Source: Candidatus Woesebacteria bacterium GW2011_GWB1_39_10 (GTDB lineage: Bacteria; Patescibacteriota; Microgenomatia; UBA8517). Taken from it: a stretch of 64,000 bases of DNA. Each line of letters opens with the position of its first letter. Within the stretch, counting starts at the first letter, position 1. The stretch spans positions 27,338 through 91,337 of the forward strand of contig LBVU01000004.1 of the NCBI GenBank assembly GCA_000993205.1, written 5' to 3'. Of this stretch, positions 9,121 to 43,717 are shown in pieces. The translations under genes and the position numbers were made by a program. The notes below the pieces were generated by a model. The model saw nothing but the letters and a program-made list of their open reading frames with translations. It was not told the origin of the DNA and made no database searches.

Positions 9121-9660
9121 CTAAGCCTTCGTATTTGTTTTGGATTTGATATTTCGTGCTTCGGATTTACTTTCCCCCAATTTAAACGCATGTGTTAAAG
9201 CAATTGCAAGAGCGTCGGCAGCATTATCAAAATGAGTTTTTTTATGCGCGCCGCTTTTTACACGACTGCCTAGAATCTTTCTAATATGTGCTTGTACTTC
9301 TTTTTTGTTAGCTCTTCCTGAACCGGTAATCATTTTTTTAATTGTTCCGGGCGCGTATTCTTCGACATGAACATTTGTTTTACTTGCCGCCAGTAACATC
9401 ACACCTTGAGCTTGACCAACCGCTATTACTGTTTTTGCATTCGTTGCAAAAAATATTTTCTCAAAAACAAAAACATCAGGTTTATGTTTTTTAATGAGAG
9501 CAACAATTTCTTCAAAAATGAGGTCCAGTCTGCGTTCCTTAAGAAGAGTTTTACTTGTTTCGATCAACCCCCATGTGACGACTTCGTTTCCCTTTCCGTT
9601 TAAACGAACAAGTCCGAAACCGGTTGTGGCCGTACCGGGATCTATTCCTAAAATAAGCAT
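9121..9660 (-). CDS. ruvC: Holliday junction resolvase RuvC, with a repeat-derived C-terminal extension
   Basis: ILGIDPGTATTGFG RNase-H-fold N-terminus from the internal ATG at 9658-9660. The tail ESKSEARNIKSKTNTKA is encoded by TTCG/ATTTG repeat DNA. Confidence 0.8.
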   Translation of the reverse strand: MLILGIDPGTATTGFGLVRLNGKGNEVVTWGLIETSKTLLKERRLDLIFEEIVALIKKHKPDVFVFEKIFFATNAKTVIAVGQAQGVMLLAASKTNVHVEEYAPGTIKKMITGSGRANKKEVQAHIRKILGSRVKSGAHKKTHFDNAADALAIALTHAFKLGESKSEARNIKSKTNTKA

Positions 9661-9852
9661 AACTAAATTATACCCTAACAAAAAACGAAAAGGGCAGGTA
9701 TCTGTCGATAAATAAAATTTGACAGAACCTGCCCCAATAATTTCTAAGTGCCACAAACACCTTGTCCTGCCGCATAAGCTTTGGCATGGCGGTATTTATG
9801 GCACCTATTCGCCAATTACCTTCCGGATAAAAATTCCGCAGGTATTTGGCAA

Positions 9853-9926
9853 GATGGCCGGGAAGGATTTGAACCTTCGATCTCTCAGATCCTATCTGAG
9901 CGCGTTAAACGACTACGCTACCGGTC
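9853..9926 (-). tRNA. tRNA-like, anticodon AGG (Pro-type?). One A-C mismatch in the acceptor stem; possible pseudo-tRNA
   Basis: Hand-folded cloverleaf. Acceptor TGACCGG/CCGGCCA, D-stem GCGT/ACGC, anticodon stem CTCAG/CTGAG with loop ATAGGAT, T-arm GAAGG-TTCAAAT-CCTTC. Confidence 0.4.
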
Positions 9927-9928
9927 AA

Positions 9929-10027
9929 AAGCGGGTGGAAGGATTCGAACCTTCGACCTTCTAACCATCTATGCCGTTCGGCACAGATTAAACAAGTTAA
10001 CTGCTCCACCAGTTTGAGCTACACCCG
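9929..10027 (-). tRNA. Atypical 99-nt tRNA-like gene. Perfect acceptor, D and T arms, but a ~25-nt insertion forms an 8-bp hairpin in the anticodon/variable region
   Basis: GCGGGTG...CACCCGC acceptor, GCTC/GAGC D-stem, GAAGG-TTCGAAT-CCTTC T-arm. The internal TCTGTGCC-GAAC-GGCATAGA hairpin leaves no canonical anticodon arm. Confidence 0.45.
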
Positions 10028-10144
10028 CACAAAAAAATTAAAGAACTAAAAGGAAACCCTCCGCAGGATATTGTTTCTCAGGGTTTCCTTGACCAGCCGG
10101 TTGTGTCGAATGACAAAACCGTTCCCATAGATATCCCTATGGTA

Positions 10145-10217
10145 AAGACGCCGCAAGGATTTGAACCTTGGATCCAGGTGCTGCGCACCTGAGCCTTGCC
10201 AGACTTGGCTACGGCGC
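10145..10217 (-). tRNA. tRNA-Cys(GCA), putative
   Basis: Acceptor GGCGCCG/CGGCGTC (one G-U), anticodon stem CAGGT/ACCTG with loop GCGCAGC, T-arm CAAGG-TTCAAAT-CCTTG, discriminator U. C33 is unusual. Confidence 0.55.
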
Positions 10218-10274
10218 CGAAAAACACCAGAACACGAGTCTACAAAAATTTAAAAACTTTGTCAATACATTTAG

Positions 10275-23911: not shown

Positions 23912-23985
23912 GCGGGTGTAGTTCACCGGTAGAATGCGTCCTTCCCAAGGATGAGAAGGCGGTCCGATTCCGCTCACCCGCTCCA
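23912..23985 (+). tRNA. tRNA-Gly(CCC), CCA encoded
   Basis: Acceptor GCGGGTG/CACCCGC perfect, anticodon loop TTCCCAA, T-loop TCCGATT (C at position 55), discriminator U then CCA. Confidence 0.78.
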
Positions 23986-43640: not shown

Positions 43641-43645
43641 ATTAG

Positions 43646-43717
43646 TGGACGACGTTGGAATCGGACCAACGACCTTTCGAATGTGAGTCGAATGTTCTAC
43701 CACTGAACTAGTCGTCC
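43646..43717 (-). tRNA. tRNA-Val(CAC)
   Basis: Acceptor GGACGAC/GTCGTCC, anticodon stem TTCGA/TCGAA with loop CTCACAT, T-arm GTTGG-TCCGATT-CCAAC, discriminator A. Confidence 0.78.

Follow-up and report, generated by a model that had tools for sequence, protein, structure and literature searches.

To our knowledge, bacterial tRNA genes are interrupted by group I introns only, and the few bacterial tRNA mimics that we know of are tmRNA, YrlA and some riboswitch folds. L-arrays such as the cryptic trn operon of Anabaena consist of 20-43 mostly canonical, aminoacylated tRNAs (PMC8421152), and phage tRNAs evade anticodon nucleases via substitutions in the anticodon loop (PMC10264068). Here we describe tRNA-X, a tRNA-like gene of 99 nt in a 64,000-nt stretch of contig LBVU01000004.1 (the window) from a Candidatus Woesebacteria bacterium, a member of the Candidate Phyla Radiation (CPR; Microgenomates/Woesebacteria group). 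In our best reading, tRNA-X is one gene of a short operon that encodes tRNA-shaped RNAs and is located between DUF5652 and ruvC in one Woesebacteria subclade. Its 25-nt "insertion" is best supported as a stable, maintained structural extension and not an intron. tRNA-X itself may be a supernumerary tRNA mimic that does not decode and in which selection maintains the L-shaped body, with a decoy or alternative substrate as its most likely role; we propose this tentatively, as an account that comes close to being probable without quite reaching it.

The gene is located on the minus strand at 9930-10028. A sequence-only reading of the window had described a gene of the same length at 9929-10027; the length was confirmed, while the coordinates were found to be offset by one base according to the Rfam alignment. 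Read 5' to 3', the RNA is GCGGGUG-UA-GCUC-AAACUGGUG-GAGC-A-GUUAA-CUUGUUUAAUCUGUGCCGAACGGCAUAGAUGG-UUAGA-AGGUC-GAAGG-UUCGAAU-CCUUC-CACCCGC-U. The Rfam tRNA model (RF00005, gathering threshold 29 bits) covered the whole RNA with a score of 49.8 bits (E=1.1e-7, whole window) and matched all 71 model positions, so that the canonical acceptor, D and T arms of the sequence-only reading are all present. tRNA-Gly(CCC) in the same window has the identical acceptor stem, and the G1-C72 and C2-G71 pairs of tRNA-X are presumably also compatible with tRNA-Thr identity features. Exactly 48 nt lie between the D and T stems, as had been counted. The Rfam alignment assigned a 28-nt insertion to the anticodon loop, with 32 nt between the two anticodon-stem strands and a variable region (AGGUC) of the normal 5 nt. 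No 5+7+5 anticodon arm exists in tRNA-X, in agreement with the sequence-only reading. A decoding class-I tRNA was rejected, as these 32 nt stand in place of a 7-nt loop with U33 and a purine at position 37, and no single excision restores both bases.

Instead, the GUUAA/UUAGA stem, which includes a G27.A43 mismatch and an extra C-G pair, leads through a U-rich bulge on its 5' strand into a hairpin. The 8-bp hairpin UCUGUGCC-GAAC-GGCAUAGA that had been noticed earlier was located at 9968-9987 and lengthens to 9 bp via A41-U62; it was found once in the window. The predicted minimum free energy (MFE) of the anticodon arm alone was -14.7 kcal/mol (z=-4.78; none of 200 shuffles equally stable), and that of the whole RNA was -40.4 kcal/mol (z=-4.1). 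Inspected by eye, the bulge contained neither a kink-turn nor a Ro-binding motif, being without tandem G.A pairs or a conserved bulged-C helix.

The ruvC neighbourhoods of 22 GTDB species and several metagenome contigs (loci labelled L0xx or L1xx) were compared, giving a catalogue of 35 tRNA-like genes at 15 loci. The long-arm form of tRNA-X, termed b2, occurred in three genomes: the window, L022 and L039 (613-713, L039a). Their arms are alike, with a 6-bp stem, a 5' bulge (UGUUUA, 6 nt, in the window; UUUUA, 5 nt, in L022; ACUUUAA, 7 nt, in L039a), a hairpin of 8-9 bp with a 4-9-nt loop, and 0-1 nt on the 3' strand, and they folded with z-scores of -4.8, -3.7 and -3.5. In sequence, the three hairpins are unrelated (UCUGUGCC, CUUACAC and GCAUCAUC, respectively), and the anticodon stem and its closing pair covary (C-G, U.G, U-A). 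When the three long forms were aligned with MAFFT and folded with RNAalifold, the hairpins were misaligned and pairs were proposed that are broken in the window sequence, so that only the anticodon-stem covariation was used. A D-loop AAACUGGU(U)G is common to the window, L022_2057 and L039_613 only, the short-loop orthologues having AGUGGGA. In these folds, the anticodon loop of the b2 form has turned into a U-rich 5' bulge of 5-7 nt within a helix of about 15 bp. Since this architecture recurs in other Woesebacteria with unrelated hairpins, we regard it as maintained over time, not as the product of a recent accident, and the earlier suggestion of a tRNA disrupted by a mini-insertion is too simple. 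A metagenome scan with the b2 D-arm retrieved copies of the L022 allele only, and the independent b2 sequences number three. Further expanded forms (L029; L039 840-940, L039b; L011 1689-1773) were less regular.

Comparison of related loci showed that the two parts of these genes evolve differently. Between the window and L012, whose RuvC proteins are 93% identical and whose ruvC four-fold sites are 53% identical (68 sites), the gene downstream of tRNA-X (gene c; L012_2214) has 2 differences in the 57 positions of the body and 11 in the 17 of the anticodon arm (Fisher p=2e-7). Five other gene pairs gave p values from 5e-7 to 8e-3 for body against arm. For tRNA-X itself, an alignment of the window with L011 and L012 showed that conservation extends over the flanks, the acceptor and D stems, the variable loop and the T arm, while the D-loop and anticodon arm have been replaced relative to the L011/L012 orthologue with its 8-nt loop UUUUGUAA. 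Strong purifying selection therefore acts on the variable region and on the acceptor, D and T arms. The anticodon arm remains a hairpin whose sequence, loop size and length can vary freely, and it changes at an approximately neutral rate or is exchanged. A constrained body with a free arm argues against a pseudogene and also against a decoder.

In about half of the related loci no tRNA gene was present, and DUF5652 or another gene directly adjoined ruvC; the remaining ones had 1-6 tRNA-like genes in the gap upstream of ruvC. Three body types could be distinguished: a Cys-like type a (GGCGCCG...U73), a type b that includes tRNA-X (GCGGGUG...CACCCGC-U73), and a Gln-like type c with U1-A72 (UGGCCGG...CCGGCCA). 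A canonical anticodon loop (7 nt, U33, R37) was present in nine of the 35 array genes. The others had loops of 5, 6, 8, 9, 10, 11 or 18 nt, had no U33, or had 32-36 nt between the stem strands. ARAGORN labelled array genes as Pro-AGG, Ala-AGC, His-AUG, Asn-AUU, class-I "Tyr" or "Ser", Stop-UUA or undetermined. All seven Cys-type members lack U33 (e.g. GC-GCA-GC, GA-GCA-AC), yet six keep GCA, with positions 32, 33, 37 and 38 and the stems varying around it; the exception is the Cys-type member of L039. That GCA is retained points to a triplet still recognised by CysRS or a nuclease.

Short-arm orthologues of tRNA-X with 8-nt loops (UUUUGUAA, UGUUGUAA, UUUUUAAA) were found at L011 2058-2130, L012 2057-2129, L006 796-868 and L004 2516-2588, and ARAGORN typed them as Tyr, Asn or with a four-base anticodon. 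An 8-nt anticodon loop is the size found in frameshift-suppressor tRNAs. A loop of the ochre-suppressor type, U-UUA-A, occurred in seven members of differing body types, one of them being the tRNA-X bulge. Genes with the UUA loop are located at L017 2254-2330, L018 2154-2231, L039 1051-1119, L167 1078-1152 and L004 2516-2588.

Turnover was seen between L004 (2411-3000) and L006 (543-1174). Their RuvC proteins are identical and their flanks 97-100% identical, whereas the tRNA-like genes and leaders differ, with loops UUUUUAAA and UGUUGUAA, respectively, different bodies and a 100-nt indel downstream. This contrast indicates cassette-like replacement between strains. Array genes appear to be supernumerary, as arrays are absent in many relatives and the L039 Cys-type member is without GCA. 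Since cysteine has a single anticodon, the latter also means that a housekeeping tRNA-Cys must exist elsewhere.

In the proposed non-decoding role, tRNA-X would be co-transcribed with its neighbours, cut by RNase P at the 5' end and trimmed by RNase Z or exonucleases at the 3' end. CCA would be added post-transcriptionally, because none is encoded. With an arm about 10 bp over-long and no 7-nt loop, an anticodon could probably not be presented in the ribosomal A site, and the RNA would work via its tRNA body without reading codons. For tRNA-binding enzymes, i.e. anticodon-arm-directed nucleases and/or synthetases, it may serve as a decoy or as an alternative substrate, and the arm would then vary as the contested or dispensable part. 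A decoy role in tRNA-targeted conflict is favoured, by analogy, because phage tRNAs retain their anticodon while the loop around it mutates (PMC10264068) and because array turnover occurs between strains.

Several points weigh against this proposal. The conflict role is drawn from an analogy, and redundancy in the genome of the window is deduced from relatives. The arrays are invariant within two populations (10 and 5 contigs), which would confine an arms race to differences between strains. Among the annotated open reading frames (ORFs) of the window, no nuclease, toxin, tRNA-dependent transferase or ligase gene is visibly linked to the array, and its neighbours are housekeeping genes. The members with canonical loops, a quarter of the array genes, might decode. 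Hypervariation within a population, of the kind produced by diversity-generating retroelements, was rejected, the arrays being identical across the 10 and the 5 contigs.

A broader proposal covers the whole array. The strain-variable operon might be a dedicated system for tRNA-targeted conflict, in which conserved Cys-, Gly/Thr- and Gln-type bodies carry exchangeable arms, among them long bulged hairpins, 8-nt loops and UUA loops. Its RNAs would act as decoys or resistant spares against anticodon-arm nucleases, or as recoding or suppressor tRNAs; or else the bulged arms might feed a novel bacterial splicing that does not use the bulge-helix-bulge (BHB) motif. We consider this rather unlikely.

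About as unlikely, in our estimate, is that the tRNA-like genes serve mainly as punctuation, comparable to the tRNA-miRNA units of herpesvirus MHV68, to mascRNA or to mitochondrial tRNA punctuation. Cleavage at these elements by RNase P and RNase Z would then set free the structured RNAs of the spacers and tail, the anticodon arm being irrelevant and drifting. In favour of this, the array genes share one orientation and are framed by a promoter-like site and a strong hairpin/U-tract, and the genes of L039, L011, L012 and L022 are interleaved with spacers of 85-125 nt closed by long-range stems (GGUGAACACC...GGUGUUCACC). After the last tRNA-like gene follows a structured tail RNA of about 110 nt; L011, L012 and L016 retain it with compensatory changes, and L022 retains a part of it. 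Selection on the body alone is also what punctuation would predict, and two Cys-type members gave weak Rfam matches to mascRNA. However, gene c begins 2 nt downstream of tRNA-X, and pairs in L016 and L036 are 3 nt apart, with nothing between them to release. GCA in six of seven Cys-type loops and the recurring U-UUA-A would not be expected for pure cleavage signals, and the spacers are poorly conserved across genomes.

Two types of spacer stem recur, GGUGAACACC...GGUGUUCACC and GUGCAGA...UCUGCAC, neither of which matched Rfam; the spacer RNAs are located at L039 300-1240, spacer 3 of L011 and L012, L022 2158-2257 and L004 2590-2740. Spacers and tail RNA belonged to no Rfam family, even at E<=10.

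Compared with a non-decoding mimic, both a spliced intron and a dead pseudogene seem less likely. For the former, about 23-26 nt would be excised by an endonuclease of a new kind and the ends joined by a ligase such as RtcB, giving Thr-UGU, as the sequence-only reading had proposed, or Asn-GUU or a UUA suppressor. The insert is on the 3' side of the anticodon-loop position, near the canonical 37/38 intron site. The loop starts with CU-UGU as in tRNA-Thr(UGU), and UGU is also present in short-loop orthologues. However, single 25-nt excisions gave the loops CUUGUUG, CUUGUGG, CUGAUGG and CUUAUGG, none with both U33 and a purine at 37. Scans for the BHB motif (helix, 3-nt bulge, 4-bp helix, 3-nt bulge, helix), strict and relaxed, found none common to the homologues. 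A relaxed version can be drawn, in which an outer helix and a 3-nt 3' bulge accompany a 4-bp helix of UUGU with AUAG, but it competes with the far stabler 9-bp hairpin, and only three of its four pairs form in homologues. ARAGORN does give models in intron-aware mode, the check that the sequence-only reading had called for: Asn-GUU (23 nt) for the window, Lys-UUU (27 nt) for L022, Tyr-GUA (26 nt, at a different position) for L039a, Ile-GAU (16 nt) for L039b and Pro-AGG (23 nt) for L029. Since the models differ across these five long forms, no conserved mature tRNA results. Many array members without an insert likewise have non-functional loops. No splicing endonuclease (EndA/Sen) or ligase was seen among the annotated ORFs of the 64-kb window. 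In the literature searched, with most subscription journals outside its scope, neither tRNA introns of CPR bacteria nor arrays of this kind were described. We know of no protein-spliced tRNA introns in bacteria. Taken together, an intron is improbable, and tRNA-Thr(UGU) as the mature product was not supported. Group I introns of bacterial tRNAs have at least 200 nt and a P1-P9 catalytic core; one was rejected here, the insert having 25 nt and the window no Intron_gpI match.

Equally doubtful is a decaying pseudogene, i.e. a duplicated tRNA-Gly/Thr gene that received a small palindromic insertion and lost its function. The array is dispensable, as judged from its absence in about half of the relatives, tRNA-X received no call from ARAGORN in default mode, gene c has an A3.C70 mismatch, and the c gene of L167 has a shortened T-loop. 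Decay is at odds with a body far more conserved than the synonymous sites of the adjacent gene, and with a bulge-hairpin and special D-loop shared by three divergent genomes with compensatory change. The L022-type gene is moreover identical in at least 8 independent metagenome assemblies. A repeated mini-element of the miniature inverted-repeat type was rejected as the source of the hairpin, which has one copy in the window and unrelated counterparts in the homologues. Finally, a canonical class-II tRNA (Leu/Ser/Tyr) with the hairpin as its long variable arm fits the 99-nt length and the extra hairpin superficially, but it can practically be dismissed, as already stated in the sequence-only reading, because the hairpin sits within the anticodon arm, 5' of the UUAGA strand, no 5+7+5 arm precedes it, and the covariance model places the insertion in the anticodon loop and leaves a 5-nt variable region.

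Other identities were rejected as well. ARAGORN found no tmRNA in the window. YrlA scored 19 bits (E=0.23) against a threshold of 69, with a match spanning a two-gene junction. An L-array has about 20 or more mostly canonical tandem tRNAs, compared with 1-6 genes per locus here, 26 of 35 being non-canonical. A phage origin was not supported, since the b2 pattern and the Cys-type body had no exact match in IMG/VR. The frame GCGGGTG...CACCCGCT is common among phage tRNA-Gly genes, where the loops are normal, and 114 of the 115 phage tRNAs with the tRNA-X frame that ARAGORN typed were tRNA-Gly. Separately, a GC-rich viral contig (IMG/VR UViG_3300049454_000030; L182 4233-4315, minus strand) carries an 83-nt tRNA-like gene with a c-type body (UGACCGG...CCGGUCA), a 16-nt loop on a 5-bp anticodon stem, and a strong hairpin ahead of the gene.

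The elements of tRNA-X and of its array are listed in Table 1. On the minus strand, the order is SOD, DUF5652, the promoter-like site, the Cys-like gene a, the spacer, tRNA-X, the Pro-AGG-like gene c, the tail RNA, the hairpin/U-tract and ruvC, so that the tandem of three tRNA-like genes noticed earlier was confirmed.

Table 1. Elements within and around tRNA-X, in window coordinates
Feature	Coordinates	Strand	Description
Promoter-like site	10237-10265	minus	TTGACA-17-TAGACT; upstream of the array; consensus match only
Gene a	10146-10218	minus	Cys-like body, U73; loop GCGCAGC: GCA with C33 and G37
Spacer (117 nt)	10029-10145	minus	Three hairpins, the last GGAAACCCU...AGGGUUUCC plus UUUU, then AGTTCTTTAATTTTTTTGT
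tRNA-X, acceptor stem		minus	GCGGGUG/CACCCGC, Gly/Thr-type, U73, CCA not encoded; from Rfam, fold and parsed arms
tRNA-X, D arm	10003-10019	minus	GCUC-AAACUGGUG-GAGC
tRNA-X, extended anticodon arm	9960-10001	minus	GUUAA/UUAGA stem, 6-nt 5' bulge UGUUUA, 9-bp hairpin, GAAC loop
tRNA-X, U-rich 5' bulge/internal loop	9989-9996	minus	(C)UUGUUUA; includes UGU and the U-UUA-A motif
tRNA-X, inserted hairpin	9967-9988	minus	A-UCUGUGCC-GAAC-GGCAUAGA-U, 9 bp
tRNA-X, T arm	9938-9954	minus	GAAGG-UUCGAAU-CCUUC
Gene c	9854-9927	minus	Gln-like body (U1-A72), loop AUAGGAU, anticodon AGG ("Pro-AGG"), A3.C70 mismatch
Tail RNA, long GC-rich hairpin and U-tract	9680-9853 (hairpin/U-tract 9680-9735)	minus	Array end, before ruvC
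ruvC -10 box	9667-9672	minus	TATAAT; ATG at 9660

The loop of gene a could close into a 7-bp stem with a GCA triloop. Within the spacer, AGTTCTTTAATTTTTTTGT ahead of tRNA-X is conserved, and the final 30 nt are kept in L011 and L012. An A34 anticodon such as that of gene c is unusual among bacteria; its orthologues have a nearly identical body and the loops or anticodons GGG (L012), CGCGAAA (L011), AUU (L022) and UUA (L167). The arms of the tail hairpin are GGGGCAGGU...ACCUGCCC, of which the terminator scan detected the inner 5 bp only. The automatic ruvC ORF (9121-9756, minus strand), which has 211 aa and begins with TTG at 9756, is too long, as it runs through the terminator and promoter. 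A start at the ATG and a length of about 179 aa are indicated by homologues and by the TATAAT ahead of that codon. Downstream of ruvC most relatives have a conserved ORF of about 80 aa that is weakly similar to EF-Tu domain 2 (L004 3584-3823, L009 3509-3757), and the window has only a 48-aa ORF at this place. In L167-L169, which belong to the L022-type long-arm lineage, small GIY-YIG nuclease ORFs are located directly up- and downstream of ruvC.

The window is contained in the Joint Genome Institute (JGI) contig Ga0209518_1000017 (275 kb). It is gene-dense, with 34-41% G+C, and encodes bacterial proteins including RuvC, DnaE, L19, GatA/B, SOD, Obg and Ddl, and the nearest RuvC proteins were from Microgenomates/Woesebacteria metagenome-assembled genomes. 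Two further tRNA genes of the window, tRNA-Gly(CCC) (23912-23985, plus strand) and tRNA-Val(CAC) (43645-43717, minus strand), have the T-loop UCCGAUU with C at position 55, where U is usually invariant. tRNA-Gly(CCC) has an encoded CCA; the array genes have none, and their T-loops are of the consensus UUCGAAU or UUCAAAU.

These arrays represent lineage-wide extra tRNA-shaped genes in CPR bacteria, in which the non-conserved part is the anticodon arm that normally defines a tRNA. If the RNAs are stable, they would point to a tRNA function beyond decoding in minimal genomes, such as decoy, aminoacyl carrier or processing signal. Automatic labels such as Pro-AGG, Tyr-GUA, Stop-UUA or "undetermined" mislead the inference of codon usage and genetic code in CPR.

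Compared with known systems, tRNA-X resembles archaeal and eukaryal BHB pre-tRNAs with 37/38 introns in having about 25 extra nt in the anticodon-loop region, a perfect cloverleaf and an extended helix. It differs from them in its bacterial host, in lacking two 3-nt bulges 4 bp apart and in its continuous 3' strand, and there is no consistent mature loop, homologues predicting different isotypes. The array shares with mascRNA/MEN-beta, the MHV68 tRNA-like units and mitochondrial punctuation a tRNA shape, probably without decoding, and a degenerate anticodon arm. As in mascRNA-type elements, the units presumably lie within longer transcripts beside structured RNAs, and the acceptor/T/D body is selected. 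Those systems are eukaryotic or viral, whereas the array keeps full D- and T-loops and synthetase-type acceptor features and includes abutting units without cargo, its processing being predicted. Like the Anabaena trn operon, the array is supernumerary, dispensable and separate from the housekeeping set, with some non-canonical genes or pseudogenes and proposed roles outside translation, but L-arrays are far longer than the 1-6 genes found here, three quarters of which have non-canonical anticodon loops.

The Cys-type members resemble nuclease-evading phage tRNAs, in which the triplet is kept, adjacent loop positions are altered and turnover between strains is rapid. Unlike the phage genes, the array is chromosomal in a CPR host, many of its loops have 8 nt or more or carry long hairpins and are unable to decode, and no nuclease was identified alongside it among the annotated ORFs of the window. 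The 8-nt loops of tRNA-X relatives and the U-UUA-A of seven array members are features of frameshift- and ochre-suppressor tRNAs, respectively, but a closed loop of 7 or 8 nt is missing from tRNA-X itself, and no recoding was seen in the genes of the window. The Y RNA YrlA likewise joins a tRNA-like module to a long helix, but its termini are located within that helix, in a permuted topology.

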